Positions 5,461-64,000 of a DNA stretch of 64,000 nucleotides are shown piece by piece; position 1 is the stretch's first letter, and each line of letters begins with the position of its first letter. The notes under the pieces are model-generated. The model was not told the DNA's origin and ran no database searches. It was given only the letters and a program-made list of their open reading frames with translations. The DNA lies in assembly GCA_963514005.1 (NCBI GenBank), contig OY740814.1:11222001-11286000 (forward strand), written 5' to 3'. Position numbers and translations under genes: made by a program. The DNA is from Raja brachyura (lineage: Eukaryota).

Positions 5461-6180
5461 TAAGAAAGAACTGCAGATGCTGGTAAAATTGAAGGTAGAC
5501 ACAAAATAGAAACATAGAAACACAGAAAAATAGGTGCAGGAGTAGGTCATTCGGCCCTTCGAGCCTGCACCGCCATTCAATATGATCATGGCTGATCATC
5601 CAACTCAGTATCCCGTACCTGCCTTCTCTCCATACCCCCGGATCCCTTTAGCCACAAGAGCCACATCCAACTCGCTCTTGAATATAGCCAATGAACTGGC
5701 CTCAATGACTTTCTGTGGCAGAGAATTCCAGAGACTCACCACTCTCTGTGTAAAGAATGTTTTCCTCATCTCGGTCCTAAAGGAATTCCCCCTTATCCTT
5801 AGACTGTGACCCCTTGTTCTGGAGTTCCCCAACATCGGGAACAACCTTCCTGCATCTAGCTTGTCCAACCCCTTAAGAATTTTGTAAGTTTCTATAAGAT
5901 CCCCCCTCAATCTTCTAAATTCCAGTGAGTACAAGCCGAGTCTATCCAGTCTTTCTTCATATGAAAGTCCCGACATCCCAGGAATCAGTCTGGTGAACCT
6001 TCTCTGAACCCCCTCTGAAATGCTGGAGTAACTCAGCTGGGTGGGTACAGCAGCATCTCTAGAGAGAAGGAATGGGTGACGTTTCAGGTCGAGACCAAGG
6101 GTCTCGACCCAAAACGTCACCCATTTCATCTCTCCAGAGATGCTGCTTGACCCGCTGAGTTACTCCAGCATTTTGTGTCC
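5461..6180. mobile_element. Fold-back Penelope-derived insert interrupted by a CR1 LINE
   Basis: Left arm 5461-5507 resumes at 6018. The arms invert around ggtcgagacc-aag-ggtctcgaccc (~6088-6110). Confidence 0.8.
5508..6017 (-). mobile_element. CR1/HER1-type LINE 3' fragment
   Basis: Translates to VQRRFTRLIPGMSGLSYEERLDRLGLYSLEFRRLRGDLIETYKILKG...FFTQRVVSLWNSLP (CR1 ORF2 C-terminus), with 3'UTR and (tttctatg)n tail. Confidence 0.92.
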
Positions 6181-9479: not shown

Positions 9480-9877
9480 ACTTTATATTGCCAGAATGTG
9501 AGGGAATTGTACGCAAACTGGAGGAACAGCACCTCCTATTTCCTCCAGTTTGCGTACAATTCCCCCTCTATCCCCCCTCTCCCACTCTAATCGTCCTATT
9601 AGTTCCATTGTTTGCATCCTTGTATCCTTGCGTTGTCACCTCTTCTCCAGCCATCAACGGGCCATTGTGGGCTCCACCTTTCCTTCACCGGTCCTGCTTT
9701 GTTTGGGCCTTTTCTTACCTCCAGTTCCCTCCCCTCTACTTTCAGGCTGAAGAAGGGTCCTGACCCAAAATGTCACCCATCCTTTTTCCCAGGAGATGCT
9801 GCCTGACCGGCTGAGTTACTCCAGCACTTTGCGTCTGTCTTCGGTGTATACCAGCATCTGCAGTTCCTTTCTACACA
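9480..9877 (+). mobile_element. Penelope-like element 3' end (endonuclease C-terminal remnant plus terminal repeat)
   Basis: RKLEEQHLLF resembles the C-terminus of vertebrate Penelope GIY-YIG ORFs. It is followed by a pyrimidine-rich UTR, a hammerhead-like core at 9747-9774 and the shared terminus cagcatctgcagttcc. Confidence 0.75.
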
Positions 9878-16190: not shown

Positions 16191-16347
16191 GATGTTTCGG
16201 GTCGAGACCCTTCTTCAGATTGGAGAAGGGTCTCGACCTGAAACGTCACCCATTCCTTCTCTCCAGAGATGCTGCCTGTTCCGTTGAGCTACTCCAATTT
16301 TTTGTGTCTATCTTCGACTTAAACCAGCATCTGCAGTTCCTTCTTAC
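16191..16347 (+). mobile_element. Penelope-derived insert with inverted hammerhead head, 15-bp TSD
   Basis: TSD acagttacaacaaaa at 16176-16190 and 16348-16362. A minus-strand core at 16191-16218 abuts a plus-strand core. Confidence 0.88.
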
Positions 16348-19384: not shown

Positions 19385-19597
19385 AAATAACACAAAGTGC
19401 TGGAGTAACTCAGCATGTCTGGCTGCATCTCTGGACAACGTGGGTAGGTGACGTTTCAGGTCGAGGCCCTTCTTCAGCAGTTTGACCAGAAGCGTCGCCT
19501 GTCCATGCCCTCCAGAGATGCTGCCTGACCTGCTGTGTTACTCCAGCACTTTGACTTTATTTTTGTAAACCAGCGTCTGCATGTCCTTGTATCTCCA
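19385..19597. mobile_element. Fold-back Penelope-derived insert
   Basis: Inverted arms. Minus-strand core CTGAAGAAGGGCCTCGACCTGAAACGTC at 19450-19477. Confidence 0.8.
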
Positions 19598-20062: not shown

Positions 20063-20247
20063 TGAACTACGCTGTGGAACAGGCTCATCAGGGAGTGTTC
20101 TTCAACCAAGGGCAATGCTGCACAGCAGGATCGCGGATCTACGTGGAAGAGCCGATCTATGAGGAGTTTGTCCAAAAAAGTACAGAACGTGCACAGAGGA
20201 GAACAGTAGGAAACCCTTTTGATCCGGCCACTGAGCAAGGGCCCCAA
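20063..20247 (+). CDS. ALDH1A2: ALDH1A2 coding exon 9-equivalent (185 bp)
   Basis: ctcacag| acceptor (phase 1), caa|gtaaga donor. Encodes [62 protein letters not shown], with the catalytic Cys motif FNQGQCC. Confidence 0.97.
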
Positions 20248-20855
20248 GTAAGATTTTTTCTCTCAAGCAAAGCAAACAAAAATATGACTGTGTCAATATT
20301 CATCCACTTTTATTATGGAGGAGATTTTTGTATCATGCTGTATCTTAGTTTTTTAGGAGCTCTGGACGTGGGTCTTTGTTTAAAGAGAATCAAAACACAA
20401 TGTTCATCCTGTGCCATCCATCACATTAAAAACATCTGAAGGAAACAGTTAATGTTAATCTTAATAAACCCCGCAAATATTAGCATCACATTCCAGAGGA
20501 AGACAGACTTCTGATGTTTGTACTTCTTGGCATAAGGCTGTTTCTGCCCTGTGTTATAAGGTTGCATATTTCACAGAACAATATACATGGTTCTTTATAG
20601 TTTGATATAGTATTGTTATATTTTTCAGTACAATATTCGTTTGATTTTATTGTGAAACAGAGTAAAGCTGTTTTATTTTTACAATGTATTTTTTTCTCTG
20701 GTATGTTGTATACACCACTTATTTTTCCAAAATGAGATATAAAAAAGTTCTGCACGCATCATGAGGTAGAATCTGGTGTGATATCGTGCCAAATGCTACA
20801 GTCATTTGGCTTGCGATGATGGATTGCTGCAATGAAGGATTTCATTTGTTTTCAG

Positions 20856-21692: not shown

Positions 21693-22194
21693 ATGTTGTT
21701 CACATCAGTCCAGGAAAGCTCTGCTTGTGAGGTTTTTCAAGATAGTTTTGCTCAAATGTGATGGATTCACTCAACTGTCCACAGAGAATCAAAAATAAGT
21801 AAATCTTGCAAAGGTTTGTTCATATGTTGCCTACCAGGAGCACAGACTGGGAAACCTTTCTTTCAGCTCCCTACCACGGTACTCTCTTCAGAATGGAGCC
21901 TTTACAAAATGTAGAATTCCAACACATCAACGATTTGGCAAATGTTTACTTTTAACATAGACGGCAAGTAATCAATGAATTAATTATCAAGGAACAAAGC
22001 AGCATTGTGAGCTACATTTCCAATAGCAATACGTATTTACCTTTCAAAACAAGGGAAGCGGAGCCTTTACCAAATGCAACATTACCAATTTATACCAACC
22101 GATCCCATTGGAATTTAGCCCAATCAACGCATTGAACCTGTGATGTCTTCTTAATCCTGCAAATATTTCACTTACAAAATGAATAACATCTGCA

Positions 22195-22290
22195 GGTGGA
22201 CAAAAGTGCTGGAGAAACTCAGTGGGTGCAGCAGCATCTATGGAGCGAAGGAAATGGGCAACGTTTCGGGCTGAAACCCTTCTTCAGACT
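22195..22290 (-). mobile_element. Short Penelope-derived insert with hammerhead core
   Basis: The minus strand reads CTGAAGAAGGGTTTCAGCCCGAAACGTT (22260-22287). Confidence 0.82.
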
Positions 22291-22634
22291 GCAAGGTTAT
22301 GTGAAAGGATCAAGGGGAATATCACAGATTCAACGGGCTGAAAGGCTTATATCTAAGCTCTTTCAACCAATGCTTCCCAAACCTAACACACACACGCACT
22401 ATGTAAAATGATTCTCACCTCTCCAGTCACTGTTTTGACGGATATCTTAAATCAGCGTTCTCTGGTTGCCAATCTTCTTTCCAATGGAAAGAATATCTCC
22501 CTATTTAATCCTTATATTTAAATTAAATCCCCCTTAACCTATTTCTGTTCACTCATCCTTAATATTCCCAATAAATCAGCATCCTGGTCTTGACACTGCG
22601 ATGGCCCAGAAACAGGACCTAACAGTGACTTATC

Positions 22635-35302: not shown

Positions 35303-35545
35303 AGATGGCGCAGTGGCACAGCTGGTAGAGCTGCTGTCCCACAGCGCCTTAGACCCAGGTTTGATCCTGATCTTGGGTGCTGTCTGTGCGGAGTTTGCAC
35401 GTTCTCCCTGTGACTGCGTGGATGGCCTCCGGGTGCTCCGATTTCCTCCCACATCCCAAAGACGTGCATGTTTGTAGTTTAATTGGCTACTGTAAATTGC
35501 CCCTAGTGGGATAACATCAAACCAGCGATGGTTGGCATGGACTCC
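35303..35545 (+). mobile_element. V-SINE (HE1-like)
   Basis: tRNA-like head and V-domain gtctgtgcggagtttgcacgttctccctgtgactgcgtgg. Confidence 0.87.
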
Positions 35546-38961: not shown

Positions 38962-39056
38962 GATAGACTCAAAAAGCTGGAGTAACTCAGCGGGTCAGGC
39001 AGCATCTCTGGAGAAAAGGAATAGGTGACGTTTCGGGTCGAGACCCTTCATCAGGC
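38962..39056 (-). mobile_element. Short Penelope-derived insert with the best-preserved hammerhead core
   Basis: Same family as the inserts above. It ends immediately upstream of the core. Confidence 0.85.
39027..39054 (-). ncRNA. Minimal type I hammerhead ribozyme motif (activity untested)
   Basis: The minus strand reads CUGAUGA-A-GGGU-CUCG-ACCC-GAAA-C-GUC. It has both catalytic boxes, a 4-bp helix II, a loopless palindromic helix III (ACGU) and a GUC cleavage triplet. Confidence 0.65.
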
Positions 39057-40753
39057 ATCGGCATGATGACATCACAGGAAAAACATGCTTCTCTGTAAAC
39101 TTCATGGTCCCGTTCCAAATCCTACACATTCCGCAAGGTAATCCTGGAACCATTTAGCATGCTGACCTTCAGAAGATTAGTGACTCCTCATTAATTACAA
39201 CAAAAGGCACAGAAGATACTCTGTTTATTTTGCGAAATATTCTGCAGTGAGCGTGCGGTGTTGATCCAGTCAAAAAATAAAAACTGCATTAAGACTGATG
39301 TCTCCAATGTTATGAGATGGGATATTAACAACACAGCACAGATCTACACTTCAAATGAATGGTAGGCACAGAGAGCATGGGAAAGGCTGCCTCAAACTGC
39401 ATGTGTTCCACTCACTAGTCATCTTCAGTGCTTTCACAGATTGAGCTGGGGACCGGCCAGATTTTCAGTACAGGAAGCTCTGTCATGACTGAATTACACC
39501 TTTGAAGTGTAAATCGCCAAGATAATTTTTCTTGAGGAAGCATTTCTGTTAAATTCATGCATGAGAAGTGGTTTGACTGGCCACAGATGCACCGAGGAGC
39601 ATGAGATTCATTTATTTAGTCTGCGACTGTAATTTTGATTCAGCTGCTGTTTATATTTGAACTGATCCAATCCAGTACTGCCAAAATACACAGGCAATAA
39701 TGGGGATTTTAAAAATAATCCAGTTTAGTTTAATTTTTACTTTTCTCTCAGACTTCCTCTTTTAAATTTTTCTTGCCTTTTAAATCTCATTATTGGAAGC
39801 TTCAATGTAATTGCTTTGTTAAAAGTTATTCGAAATGATTTGATGGGAGAGTTAATACCTTTGACTTCACAGGAATAAACCTCCCATTAAAATAAATAGG
39901 TTTTAGGGTGAGAGTTTAAAGAGCGACCTCTTCATTCACGACAAATAGATTAATGAACAAGAAATATATCTGCCATGGAGATTCCACATATTTAAAGGGA
40001 CAGTTCTCACTCGGGGGGTGAGTCGGTAGAGTGGAGGACATGTCAGGCTACCATCCATCCTGATCTCGGCAAAGTGGGGTCACCATGTTTTAAGGGATTG
40101 GAATCAAGATGGGTTGTGGCAGTGGAACGGCAAGTAACAGGACCATGAAAGGGCTAGTGCAGGTAAGTGCAGTTGGGTAAGTGATTGAGAGATGGGCCGG
40201 GCAAGTAGCAGCTATCCTGTAGTTGGGCCCCAATTGCCTCAAGGGGATTTGATCCAAGGAAAGGCATCGCTGGACTTCAGCTGGTGTCCTCTACGCCAGC
40301 TACATTCAGAACCCACAGGAAGGCTGCAGCAAACCCCAGGGGCAATGTTAAATGTATAATAAATAAGGAGGCCCTGTTTTCTTTAGCAGAAGGGTCAAAA
40401 ACCAGAGCAGGGACATAGATTTAAAATCATTTGTAGACGTATGGGAGGGGAAAGGATGAGAAGGTTTTTCACCCAGAGCTTGGCAGGCTTCTGGCACTCA
40501 CTGTGTGAAAGGGTAATGGGTGCCGAAACCTCATTGCATTTAAATGGGCTCCAGATAACCGCGTCCTGCAGGGCTACAGACCCAGCGATGCAAGATGAAA
40601 GGGGGCGAGCATCTCCTGGCCAACAAAGACACGATGGGCCGAGTGACCTCCTTCTGTGAGGCAGGGCTTCTGCAAACCCAATGATTAATTGTCTGGTTTC
40701 AGTCAGGCAAGTAAAAACATGCTTGCAGAGTTGACCAAGATGATGAAGGAAGG

Positions 40754-42927: not shown

Positions 42928-43064
42928 GAAGAAGTCTGAAGAAGGGTCTCGACCTGAAACATTACCTATTTCTTCGCTCCATAGATGCTGCCTCACCCGC
43001 TGAGTTTCTCCAGCATTTTTGTCTACCTTTGATTTTTCCAGCATCTGCATTTCTTTCTTAAACA
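42928..43064 (+). mobile_element. Short Penelope-derived insert, 14-bp TSD
   Basis: TSD tgtacacaataaaa at 42914-42927 and 43065-43078. Core CTGAAGAAGGGTCTCGACCTGAAACATT starts at 42936. Confidence 0.88.
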
Positions 43065-43479: not shown

Positions 43480-43610
43480 TGTTGGAAGGAACTGCAGATC
43501 CTGGTTTGGATTGAAGATGGACACAAAATGCTGGAGTAACTCAGCGGGACAGGCAGCATCTCTGGAGAGAAGGAATGGGTGACGTTTCGGGTCGAGACCA
43601 TTCCTCAGAC
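43480..43610 (-). mobile_element. Short Penelope-derived insert
   Basis: Minus-strand core CTGAGGAATGGTCTCGACCCGAAACGTC at 43581-43608. Confidence 0.85.
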
Positions 43611-43814
43611 ATTTTCTAATAACCAGCCATTCCAAACCATCTTAGAATGCTTTTCTTTCAATACTTTTACCATCTTTTCTTCCACTGTTGCTAAATAACA
43701 GGATCTGATTTCTTTCCCCTTTTAAATATTGTCAAAAACATTTCTCTGTTCAATATATCCAGACCATGAGCAAGTAGTTGTATGAGCACAGGACTTGTTT
43801 AATGCACCACCAAT

Positions 43815-44113
43815 TAATATAGAGAGACAGCGCGGAACAAGGCACTTCTGCCCACCAAGTCCACACCGACCAGCGATCCCCGTACACTAGCATTATCCTA
43901 CACTCTGGGGATAATTTACAATCTTTATCGAAGTCAACTAACCTGCAAACTGTTACACCTTTGGAGTGCGGGAGGAAGCCGGAGCACCCGGAGAAAACCC
44001 ACGCGGTCACACAGAGAACATACAAACGCCATACAGACAGCACCCTGCCAGGATCGAACCTGGGTCTCTGGCACTGTAAGGCAGCAACTCAACCGCTGCG
44101 CCACTGTGCGCCC
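43815..44113 (-). mobile_element. V-SINE (HE1-like)
   Basis: gggaggaagccggagcacccggagaaaacccacgcggtcac...ccgctgcgccactgtgcgccc. Confidence 0.88.
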
Positions 44114-44239
44114 TATTTCACCAAGCCAAGGGAAGTGTTGTCAGTAGAAGCAGACACTTCGGACCTGTGGACTTTCATGGCAGATGACCATTTCTGCAAT
44201 TTATTCCCAAAGAATCAGACCTAGTTATTTTCAAATGTA

Positions 44240-47702: not shown

Positions 47703-48012
47703 GGGTGGCACGGTGGTGCAACGGTAGAGCTGCTGCCCTTCTGCACCAGGGTCCCGGGTTCCATCCCAACTACGGGTCCTGTCTGTGTGGAGTTTGTACG
47801 TTCTCCCTGTGACTACGCGGGTTTTCTTCGCGTGCTCCTGTTTCTTCCCACATTCCAAAGGCGTGCAGGTTTTTAGGTTAATTGGCTGCTGTAAATTATC
47901 CCTATTGTGCAGGATAGAACGGGAGATAGTACGGGAGATCATTTCTCGGTGCGGATTCATTGGGCCGAAGGGCCTGTTTCCATGCTGTATCTCTACACTA
48001 AATGAAACTAAA
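47703..48012 (+). mobile_element. V-SINE (HE1-like)
   Basis: Full head, V-domain and tail gggccgaagggcctgtttccatgctgtatctc. Confidence 0.9.
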
Positions 48013-49384
48013 CACTGAGAACGGCATGGACATCAGCATACCAAAATACTGGAGCTCCTGGGTAAAGCTAATTCTCTGCAATAGTCCACACAATGTTCCA
48101 TTGAGTAGCTCCACCACAGTAAGTCCTTGAATTTCTTAATCGTCTTCAGAAATGATTGTATCTAATCATCTGAGGATTTACTGCTGAAGTTTAAAAAACC
48201 CTAAATATTTCCATGTGCCAATCTAGAGAACATTTCATCCCAATCATTAACTGATAAAGACACAGTGAACGGTAAACTGCTTTGGTTGCCAACTCTTGTT
48301 TTGTACAACTAGAACATTGTCAGTCACAAGTCACTCCTTGAAGCTATTGAACACAGATCACTGGCCAAACTGGCACCGTACACAAAACAAAATAAAAAGT
48401 TTACAAGGTATGAAGATATTTGTTTACTTGGCATGGCTCTGGTTCCGTGGTATTTGCTGATCTATAAACTTCCGTTTTAAATGAAAACTTCCCATAAAAT
48501 GCCTCCAGGAGCAGTTTGCCTGTCATTTGCATTTGAAAGGTGTTGATCAAATTGTAGCATTATGGTAACAGTATACTCTGACTGAAGTGAAGTGTTGGAA
48601 CGCTGGTGTAAACCTTTGAATATTGTTGAATACCCATGTTTGCCAGAGACTTGTGCAGCTCAAACCTGTTGCTCTACACATTCGCAGGTACTGCACAAGC
48701 ACCAGTCTCACCTCTCCACAATATCATGCAGGAGACAACCACTTTGTCTTGTCAAATGTTTCATTCTCTCGTGTTCTAGTTTTTATTCTGCGCCCTTCCA
48801 TTCTGTTGTCTTAGCATGACATTCTTTGCACTTGACTCAATATCAAAAAGGATAATATTACCTCGTTCATTCAAATATTAAGAAAACTATTCCAAAGTTG
48901 TACACAGCTGTCCACATCCCACATCTGTGCTTGATTTTGGCTGTTGTTATTTTAATTTCTGGCCTTACAAATGTCCACTTTTGTGGGTTTGCTCAATATG
49001 TTTATTTTCTCTTGATCTTTCTGTTTGACGAATGTCTCCTGATTGAATCATTTAATGCTCTGAATAATACGCTGCCAAAAGTGTAAGCCATACTATTAAA
49101 CAAACAAGTGGTCAAAGCTTCAAACACTATAACCAACGACACATGAACTAAACCTACGACTGGATATAAATCTAGCTCTTCCTTCTCATGAGGTGCTCTT
49201 GACTCCATCCCCTTTGTTTGACAACCAAACTGGGGACAAACGGGATGGAAGTACTCTTTCCCTTGCAATGGTTACAGAAGGACTATTCATCTATTGTAAA
49301 ATACGGTGGCTCTTTGTATCTTGTTTCTTCCAATGGATCAGCAACTGTGAAGGACAGAATATAAGCTTAGACATAAATGTGAGG

Positions 49385-53147: not shown

Positions 53148-53445
53148 AATTTAGTTTAGCTTAGAGATACAGCACAGAAACAGGTCTTTCCGCGTAGAGT
53201 CCGTGCCGACCAGCGATACCCATGCACTACAGCACTATCCCACACACTGGGGACAATATACAAATTTTTTAAACCTACAAACCTGCACGTCTTTGATTTG
53301 TGGGAGGAATCTGGAGTGCCCAGAGAAAACCCACGCGGCCATGGGGAGAACGTACAAACTCCGCACAGACAGCACCCGTAGTCAGGATCGAACCCGGGTC
53401 TCTGGCGCTGTAAAGCAGCAATTCTACCGCTGCGTCACTGTGTCG
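53148..53445 (-). mobile_element. V-SINE (HE1-like)
   Basis: Reverse-complement V-domain ggggagaacgtacaaactccgcacagacagcacc and B-box ggatcgaaccc. Confidence 0.87.
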
Positions 53446-53847
53446 TCTTGTTAAATTCTACTTATGAACCACCTGGTTTGAAATAATTGAATGTAACCAA
53501 CATTGGGGCTTAGAGGCAGCAGAGATACTTATTTAAAATTGTCCTTTTGAAATCTGTTAAGCAGAAAATGAGAGAGTAAATTGGCAAAATTGTTCTTGGC
53601 CACTTCAAACATGACTAACCATCTATATATATCATTGGTGCCAAGACCTGATTAATTCCTCAGTGTCAGGAATTGTCAGGTTGGTGTTAATTTCCCTTTC
53701 TAATTGAGTTCTCTCTGATTGAGTCTCATCTTCATAGTGCCAGTGGCTACTGTGCCCAGATAAGAAGCTCTGACGATGGATAGTGTGTATTCTGAGGGGA
53801 AGAGTCAGCAAGCATGATAATGTGGTAGAGAGGAGAGAAAGAGAGAG

Positions 53848-53990: not shown

Positions 53991-54348
53991 TGACGTTCAA
54001 TGGTTCAATGATTCTTTATTGTCCTGTATGCACAGCACAGGGACATTCTTTTGCACAACCCACTAATGTACGGTTGCGATATTTTAGCGCCTCGTATGTT
54101 AGGTAATGTGTAAGCATTTGTGAATAAAAGAAGATGGTATCGTGAGATGTTCCATTGCATTTGTAGCAGCAGCATAAAAATAGGGAGAGAAGGATTGATA
54201 TTCCAGGGATAGGGGGAACTGGGGCAGCAGGTCTTCAGATTTGTGTACAACGCACGAGAGCAGTGAAGAGAATCTTACCTTGGCAGTCGCTGTAAATTCA
54301 CTGGACTTTTTCCTGAACTACATGGTCAAGCCTTTGACAATTCATTTT

Positions 54349-54640
54349 GGGGCAGCATGGTGGTGCAACGGTAGAGCTGCTGCCTTGCAACGCCAGAGAC
54401 CCAGGTTCGATCCTGACTGCGGGTGCTGTCTGTATGGAGTGTGTACGTTCTCCCTGCGACCTTGTGGGTTTTCTCCAGGTTCTTCGGTTTCCTCCCACAG
54501 GCTTGTAGGTTAATTGACTTCTGTAAATTTTCCCTAGTGTGTAGGATCGTGCTAGTGTACAGGTGATTGCTGGTTAGCATGGAATCAGTGGGCCGAAGGG
54601 CCTGTTTCCATGCTATATCTCTAAACAAAACAAAACTAAA
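54349..54640 (+). mobile_element. V-SINE (HE1-like)
   Basis: Head with ggttcgatcc B-box, V-domain and CR1-like tail. Confidence 0.9.
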
Positions 54641-54748
54641 CTGATCTCTCCATTAGTGAAGATTAACTTCACCAGACAGCAATTTTCCATCGGCAAGGAC
54701 ATAGTACCCTGCCCTTTACTGTTATAAATGGGAAGCTTTATTATTACA

Positions 54749-57900: not shown

Positions 57901-58230
57901 AGGGCAGCACAGTGGCACAGCTGATAGTGCTTCTGCCTCAGAGCGGCAGAGACCTGTGTTCGATCATGCCCTTGTGTGCTGTCTGCTTGGGGTTTGCACG
58001 TTCTCCCTGTGACCGCGTGGGTTTCCTCCAGGTGCTCCAGTTTCCTCCTGCATCCCAAAGACATGCGGGCTTGTGAGTTAATTGGCCTCTGTAACTTGCC
58101 CCCTGGTGTGCAGGGACTGGCTGAGAAAGAGGAATAAAATAGAACTAGTGTGAATGGGGTGATGGACCAGCAACGTAGACTCGGTGGGCTGAAGGCCCTT
58201 TTTCCATGCTCTATTTTTAAACTAAACTAA
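57901..58230 (+). mobile_element. V-SINE (HE1-like)
   Basis: gggcagcacagtggcacagctg head, V-domain and (ctaaa)n tail. Confidence 0.88.
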
Positions 58231-63626: not shown

Positions 63627-63844
63627 TCAAGAAGGAACTGCAGATGCTGGAAAATCGAAGGTAGACAAAAGTGCTGGAGAAACTCAGCGGGTGCAGCAGC
63701 ATCTATGGAGCGAAGGAAACAGGTAACGTTTCGGGCCGAAACCCTGAAGGAAATAGGCAACGTTTCGGGCCGAAACGTTGCCTATTTCCTTCGCTCCATA
63801 GATGCTGCCGCACCCGCTGAGTTTCTCCAGCATATTTGTCTACC
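63627..63844. mobile_element. Fold-back Penelope-derived insert
   Basis: Inverted arms with a central near-perfect palindrome at 63746-63792. Confidence 0.87.
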
Positions 63845-64000
63845 TGTGAAACCTTGGGTTTTTTCTGGGTGCTCTGGTTTCCTTCCATATTCCAAAGGCG
63901 TGCAGGTTTGCAGATTAATTGGCTTCCATAATTATCCCTATTGCGTAGGATAGTGGTAGTGATGGTGGTCAGCGCAAACTCGGTGGGCCAAAGGGCCTGT

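Follow-up and report, generated by a model that had tools for sequence, protein, structure and literature searches.

Minimal hammerhead ribozymes in the terminal repeats (pLTRs) of Penelope-like elements (PLEs) have been known since 2014 (PMC4209133). As described there, they are type-I cores with an extra base after A9 and a G10.1-C11.1 pair, their helix III is a loopless palindrome, and they occur once per pLTR, most copies being solitary and dispersed, all of which is shared by the family described here. Minimal hammerheads of this kind were reported as inactive as monomers and of low activity as dimers (PMC4209133). The present family differs by a helix II of 4 bp, in comparison with 7-8 bp in the described Schistosoma families, and by a helix I of 2 bp, as in D. 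virilis, in comparison with 4-5 bp in Schistosoma (PMC4209133). With at least 55,000 exact copies, it also exceeds the counts given there, which are ~4,000 for coelacanth and ~9,000 for Xenopus, and in the searched parts of the supplementary data no term for cartilaginous fish was found (PMC4209133).

Another example is PAc, a Poseidon element of Anolis carolinensis, whose hammerhead cuts only with protein and looked inactive until protein was added (PMC11167929). PAc and the present family have in common two internal reverse transcriptase (RT) start sites ~35 nt apart (putative in the present family), which define the tail, a hammerhead near the pLTR-ORF junction and, as will be argued for our copies, uncleaved RNA as the (main) template. 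They differ in the CX4CxxC linker of Neptune/Nematis type found here and in the first AUG, which lies ~135 nt after the cut here and 26 nt before it in PAc; no description of cap run-off or of a template jump was found for PAc in the available parts of that paper (PMC11167929). In Neptune and Nematis, endonuclease-bearing (EN+) PLEs sharing a CX2-5CxxC linker, the features listed are a single ORF, a DKG motif, this linker, a C-terminal GIY-YIG domain, partial tandems, head-to-head inverted copies and a 30-40-bp tail (10.1101/2021.04.23.441226). All of these recur in the present element, which, unlike Neptune and Nematis, has a long proline-rich region before the RT; the likeness is one of features. 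Non-LTR retrozymes also carry a type-I hammerhead in a non-coding PLE-derived repeat, but they are defined as tandem repeats in which each unit has its own hammerhead (10.64898/2026.07.22.740005), whereas the focal copy stands alone and is collinear with a coding PLE end; the focal copy was rejected as a retrozyme on this absence of tandem repeats. How PLEs transpose, and the role of the hammerhead, are stated as open in two of these works (PMC11167929; 10.1101/2021.04.23.441226).

The focal copy lies on the minus strand of the window, the whole 64-kb stretch of Raja brachyura DNA that was analysed (Table 1). The reading CTGATGA-A-GGGT-CTCG-ACCC-GAAAC-GTC, claimed in an earlier note on this DNA, is present at 39054-39027, and contains the CUGANGA and GAAA boxes, the NUH site, 13 of 13 core positions, an unpaired A between A9 and 10.1, the G10.1-C11.1 pair, a helix II of 4 bp capped by a CUCG loop, and a helix III in the form of the loopless palindrome ACGU (15.2-16.2). 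Because this core has 338 exact matches in the 2.7-Gb genome and its reversed control has 0, the motif is not a chance occurrence. The same note had called the core intact, which fails at helix I: the bases 5' of CUGA (…GATGC) place a C-A mismatch at its first pair (2.1-1.1), unlike the (C)AGT found in most of the family, its pairing probability on folding is ≤0.01, and helix I is lost from this copy. A scan with Rfam left the hammerhead families unmatched, with sub-threshold hairpin matches on inverted repeats only, and a type-III hammerhead reading was rejected, as there is no NUH before the upstream hairpin. The copy is a 93-nt solo unit spanning -28..+65 relative to the cut site; a target duplication was looked for by eye in its flanks and none was seen. 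It lies ~14 kb beyond the last aldehyde dehydrogenase (ALDH) exon found (~25,350), the nearest partner core is at least about 4 kb away, and it is likely an inert solo insertion.

Within the window, a search with the focal copy gives 33 matches, one of them the copy itself; the motif therefore belongs to a dispersed repeat. The second form reported earlier, GGGT-TTCG-GCCC-GAAAC-GTT, is indeed found at 63744-63725, in an arm cut at an inverted junction that holds no CUGANGA box, and the variant at 22287-22260 is a copy of the UUCG subfamily, with a loop that reads TTCA and not TTCG.

Table 1. Features of the focal copy, its sister copies and their neighbours in the window (strand: +, plus; -, minus;., both arms of an inverted pair).
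Feature	Position	Strand	Remark
Minimal type-I hammerhead core, 28 nt (CUGAUGA-A, helix II, GAAAC-GUC)	39027..39054	-	338 exact genome copies
Predicted hammerhead cut site of the focal copy	between 39027 and 39026	-	
Downstream part of the PLE unit, 65 nt	38962..39026	-	short-tail 3'-end class (+63..+74)
Position of CAGT in most of the family (helix I 5' strand and putative initiator)	39055..39058	-	unrelated flank in the focal copy
Head-to-head inverted pair, UUCG/GUU subfamily	63659..63845	.	minus arm holds 63744-63725, without CUGA box
UUCG-subfamily copy, CAGT 5' edge, loop decayed to TTCA	22194..22291	-	core 22287-22260
Sister copy, N7=G, 10.1-11.1 pair broken	43490..43610	-	N7=G core at 43608
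Sister copy, G12 context altered by CpG decay	42933..43059	+	CCTGAAACATT
Head-to-head inverted pair, joined at the hammerhead 5' edge	16191..16345	.	
Older inverted pair	19390..19560	.	minus arm CTGAAGA core at 19477
Inverted pair, truncated inside helix II	6018..6179	.	one of about 30 further family fragments
Further family fragments near	2538, 7924, 8317, 9747, 10925, 13617, 17651, 30962		
Further family fragments near	32114, 33897, 37375, 41419, 47073, 52532, 53888		
Aldehyde dehydrogenase exons	983-25350	+	Pfam Aldedh E 1e-18 for 20065-20250

The focal motif is the pLTR minimal hammerhead of an abundant Penelope-like retrotransposon. The earlier note had given the loopless ACGU helix III as typical of Penelope hammerheads, and the link with an element encoding RT and GIY-YIG is here seen directly: the longer copies run, on their upstream side, into a GIY-YIG C-terminus; among the 30 loci examined, most of those with a detected core have it about 100-350 nt past the stop; and in four loci (L132, L137, L141 and L145) a hammerhead core stands on each side of the element, as direct terminal repeats. 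In L132 two cores 3,971 bp apart flank a 1,204-codon open frame, with matches to RVT_1 (E 2e-4) and GIY-YIG (E 2e-3) that are both weak and under the Pfam curated cut-offs; its translation holds a DKG motif and, between RT and endonuclease, a CX4CxxC linker (CNRKRCYTC). The two best named relatives of the protein come from rays, at 63% identity. With a single ORF, an RT and a GIY-YIG domain at its C-terminus, the element shows the traits of EN+ PLEs, to which are added 3' ends with an optional tail at ~+66 and ~+102, inverted 5' copies and target duplications of 9-15 bp; by its protein features, the parent is classed as an endonuclease-bearing PLE of Neptune/Nematis type. The young subfamily was found by a genome search with the RT-side stretch of the element, and more than 10 of the 150 young matches have open frames of ~1,200 codons. 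At least four units of the element stand in direct tandem, 3,965 bp apart, in L170-L173 (C18, 46.36-46.37 Mb), and in each of them a frame of 325 codons lies at the ORF start. The first in-frame ATG of L132, ~135 nt after the upstream cut site, sits in AAG-GTATGC, which we take to resemble a splice donor consensus; D. virilis Penelope has an intron close to its start.

The commonest core form has 50,608 exact matches in the genome and the UUCG/GUU form 4,674, their reversed controls having 0, which establishes the latter as a true subfamily. Exact counts of this size, together with young copies holding open frames, make the family notable. It is probably already catalogued in repeat databases; in the literature searched, which included few subscription papers, neither this PLE family nor a run-off at the cap followed by a jump in PLEs was found described. 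When hammerhead families with another helix II were sought, no expanded family came up, with 15 genome matches against 8 in the control, and 12 of the 15 carry the tail of the focal PLE family, as judged by eye. Two fully paired GAAT/ATTC matches were rejected as covariation, as the search pattern forces pairing when both sides change by transition.

Variation at N7 was assessed in copies collected by their tails; from 396, the removal of 53 from a core-containing query and of copies short of the 5' edge left 178. The claim that N7 is A, U or G among copies stands for the window, where A, T and G all occur, and less so genome-wide, where A is found in 167 of these 178 untargeted copies and is commonest in every subfamily. 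A-to-T at N7 has 338 exact matches, only 1.5-1.7 times the number for the same change at the catalytic positions A6 (221) and A9 (201; reversed controls 0), and N7=U of the focal copy would thus be mostly a point mutation, with at most a modest excess.

The positions at which copies begin and end, counted relative to the cut after GUC, carry most of the argument on their origin. Young 5' ends were anchored at the ORF start, with sequence from 110 of the 150 young matches; of the 111 ends so obtained, -34..-26 holds 28 and -4..+5 holds 5, and the cut itself (+1) holds 1. Among 194 incidental copies the 5' end is at -34..-26 in 68, this being the only peak used, as upstream extensions (about -89 to -120) are probably in part spurious pyrimidine-tract matches. 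In 360 core-anchored copies the 3' end is at the cut in 2; a peak at +101/+102 in this set is inflated by upstream pLTRs running into the ORF, and tail classes were taken from the composites described below. A pile-up of ends at the cleavage site is thus absent both from the 5' ends (n=111 young) and from the 3' ends (n=360). Since ends lie at -34..-26 and not at the cut, the copied RNA would not be a cleavage product, which suggests, as far as sequence can tell, that insertions derive from an uncleaved, capped RNA starting at the hammerhead edge.

Further evidence comes from composite insertions, in which an ORF-side segment is directly followed, via an A-rich linker, by a second short unit. 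For their study 76 young loci were followed downstream, a sample that is not random (20 were taken because their 5' end lies near -31, 40 mostly because of a short open frame, and 16 were others); one was unmappable, and the remaining 75 comprised 55 composites, 15 loci that ran off the stretch, 3 without an adjacent unit, 1 inverted and 1 full-length and seamless. In 44 of the 55 composites the start of the second unit lies at -35..-26 (14 at -32, 7 at -31, 5 at -28 and 7 at -26, -29 and -27 being unused); its end is at +63..+74 in 37 and at +99..+105 in 15. The four commonest starts all fit YC or YR, dinucleotides at which polymerase II starts (10.1101/487496). The starts of both segments agree within an insertion, with a Spearman coefficient of 0.63 (n=53, two internal deletions being left out), and they lie within 1 nt of each other in 20 of 35 near-edge pairs (permutation p=0.0005). 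By script, one target duplication of 9-15 bp was detected around the insertion as a whole in 13 of 20, and inspection by eye added 4. The ends of the ORF-side segments (L262-L336) cluster at +536..+554 and +589..+600, after which A-rich linkers follow; these clusters are possibly preferred premature termination sites of the transcript of the element.

The last base of the linker is G in 24 of the 32 composites with a non-empty linker and a second-unit start at -34..-28, whereas among the other 219 linker bases there are 23 G and 130 A. For L1, copying of the m7G cap has been described to leave an extra G (PMC4038843); an RT adding an untemplated C irrespective of the cap would yield the same linker G. 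The 24 runs consulted, all of them contigs of mostly guessed RNA status, yielded no RNA ends over the core; in contigs of another organism, G is the last base in 6 of the 7 joints listed that lead back to the same position. At ordinary junctions G precedes CAGT in 18 and T in 66 of the first 100 genome matches listed; many of these preceding bases are templated, being the own sequence of other subfamilies, or belong to fold-back junctions or microhomology, and this test, whose pattern mixed subfamilies and fold-back junctions, is uninformative to adverse.

Head-to-head copies (L337, L341, L346, L348, L360 and the window pair at 16191-16345) often turn back precisely at CAG-T-CTG, the putative RNA 5' end; this was found in 8 of the 30 loci marked as inverted. 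An antisense template has been proposed for inverted copies (PMC3846280); the position of the fold-backs suggests self-priming of the cDNA 3' end instead.

The best explanation, which we regard as highly probable, is that the motif is a pLTR hammerhead and that copies would be made from uncleaved capped RNA by run-off, followed by joining, fold-back or a jump. The parent is the 3,971-bp unit with a hammerhead flanking the RT and GIY-YIG frame on both sides. Transcription by RNA polymerase II would begin at the 5' edge of the hammerhead or slightly within it, 26-32 nt upstream of the cut, so that the first 32 nt would be both core promoter and ribozyme. By analogy with Poseidon of Anolis, the enzyme would nick the target and prime inside the RNA, ~66 or ~102 nt past the cut, and the RT would then copy through the uncleaved hammerhead and run off the capped 5' end, leaving a unit of 90-135 nt. 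Such a unit could be joined to the target, giving solo copies like the focal one, whose span of -28..+65 is what cap run-off would leave; it could fold back, giving head-to-head pairs; or it could jump to the A-tailed downstream end of the same RNA, giving composites. The three structures are observed, and the routes to them are proposed. Once inserted, copies would decay in a nearly neutral manner, and selection on the core, if any, would act in the few source elements.

Minus-strand strong-stop DNA of LTR elements is made by reverse transcription that begins close to the 5' end of the RNA, runs off this end after ~100 nt and then switches template. A comparable course here, with a start at the hammerhead edge, priming 100-135 nt from the cap, copying of the cap and an end-to-end jump, is in our judgement reasonably likely as a whole, with the differences that priming would take place on nicked target DNA and that the jumps pass through untemplated A-rich linkers and not through homology. 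If true, one scheme would explain the flood of solo hammerheads, the partial tandems and the head-to-head palindromes. The copy ends would then be in-vivo evidence on both questions stated as open, with templates that are uncleaved, began at the ribozyme edge and were often copied twice; the model predicts a cap-dependent G and a jump to the same RNA, for which an in-vitro assay exists.

The conservation of the core had been attributed to selection on RNA structure in the master elements. Across the six subfamilies, differences occur in 0 of the 13 core columns and in 18 of the 60 tail columns (Fisher p=0.03, a value that is inflated and partly circular, the subfamilies being defined by tail letters), the ACGU palindrome is unchanged, and differences among well-sampled subfamilies fall at tolerated places, namely H17, loop II and two wobbles from U-A to U-G. 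Of the 12 stem columns, five were flagged: two for these wobbles (10.4-11.4 and 2.1-1.1), and three on account of an old subfamily of 7 copies. The U-A to U-G change reported in helix II does exist, and the wobble keeps the pair, but it is one-sided: two-sided covariation in helix II, named in the earlier note as the check on its reading, was not found, with a double change keeping the pair in 5 of 712 cells and 66 cells broken. Helix I, with only 2 bp in the family (U-A or U-G; G-C), is kept at these pairs in 166 and 170 of 178 copies, its changes being one-sided only.

In older copies the boxes do not persist as had been stated, G12 of the GAAA box being mutated in 13 of 50; all 13 core positions are kept in 16 of these 50 older copies and in 74 of 83 young ones. 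Outside CpG, mismatches in older copies amount to 18/500 (3.6%) in the core, 29/349 (8.3%) in helix II and 119/1,895 (6.3%) in the tail. The lower value in the core would fit constraint in source elements, and because of it and of the 1.5-1.7-fold excess of A-to-T at N7, decay may not be purely neutral, or there may be more source variants than were resolved. Selection in source elements is therefore plausible, with modest support from unchanged core columns and changes at tolerated sites, but covariation does not show it. Counting against it, copy-level mutation explains most of the N7 variation, and the copy ends hold no trace of cleaved templates. The 32 nt likely double as a core promoter, and therefore their conservation need not reflect RNA structure.

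Folding predictions give helix II a probability of 0.54-0.85 in the focal copy and ≤0.01 in a young copy, in which the purine-rich core pairs with the tail; in the focal fold, N7=U lets bases of the CUGAUG region pair with the cut-site strand. The modelled hammerhead dimer reaches -12.7 kcal/mol, against dimer minima of -19.7 (young copy) and -27.5 kcal/mol (focal copy), and thus stands 7-15 kcal/mol above the minimum for both. Such weak predicted folding would match the reports of monomer-inactive, dimer-weak minimal hammerheads (PMC4209133) and of a PAc hammerhead that needs protein to cut (PMC11167929). Cleavage, if any, would need a dimer or the help of a protein, and would not be the route making these copies.

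These results also bear on other origins of the motif and its copies. That a dimer of two pLTR copies cleaves and its ends religate, so that a circle with a restored site becomes the template, has been proposed for PLEs, and the low activity of dimeric constructs (PMC4209133), the 13 core columns unchanged across six subfamilies and an ACGU palindrome able to pair between two copies speak for it; yet a circle has no 5' end, whereas the copies break off abruptly at -32..-26, next to an untemplated G, ends do not pile up at the cut, and the dimer energies of -12.7 against -19.7 or -27.5 kcal/mol are unfavourable, all of which make this origin improbable. A reading of the 5' ends as a splice acceptor or an RT pause, and not as a transcription start, is improbable to the same degree. 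It draws on the long pyrimidine tract ending in CAG before the core and on the D. virilis Penelope intron that ends at helix I (PMC4209133), but splicing predicts ends at -29, where 0 of 55 second units start, on which the splice-acceptor reading of the core edge was rejected; no exon is common to the upstream flanks, each of the four commonest starts fits the YC/YR start dinucleotides of 10.1101/487496, and a pause leaves the matching starts of both segments unexplained.

The inferred start sites overlap the motif, and the 32 nt might owe their conservation solely to a role as core promoter (an initiator with a downstream element) or as protein-binding site, the hammerhead being vestigial. 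We consider this rather unlikely, even with a helix I of only 2 bp, a helix II probability of ≤0.01 in the young copy, no two-sided covariation and an internal promoter of D. virilis Penelope with an ACGT-containing downstream element (PMC2377424): the catalytic positions, the extra base after A9, G10.1-C11.1 and the NUH site are all kept, changes among well-sampled subfamilies fall on wobble, loop or H17 positions, and the PAc hammerhead also seemed inactive before protein was added (PMC11167929). Very improbable, finally, is that the focal copy is itself a working, selected ribozyme. It keeps 13/13 core positions and helix II, but its helix I is broken, N7=U mispairs the CUGAUG region with the cut-site strand in the predicted fold, no partner core lies within about 4 kb, the last ALDH exon found is ~14 kb away, and the core is kept in 16 of 50 older copies anyway. 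The preferred reading remains that of uncleaved, capped templates, of which the focal copy would be one product.

Some minor observations concern the neighbourhood of the copies. The ALDH introns hold about half of the repeat fragments of the window, on both strands. A second abundant repeat of ~300 bp, presumably SINE-like, occurs at 35303-35508, 43811-44114, 47703-48013, 53150-53448, 54337-54641, 57901-58114 and other places, and several Penelope units adjoin it or sit within it. A near-perfect 27-bp inverted repeat was found at 9497-9567, ~200 nt upstream of the copy at 9747, and the frame flanking it resembles the endonuclease end of the PLE itself.
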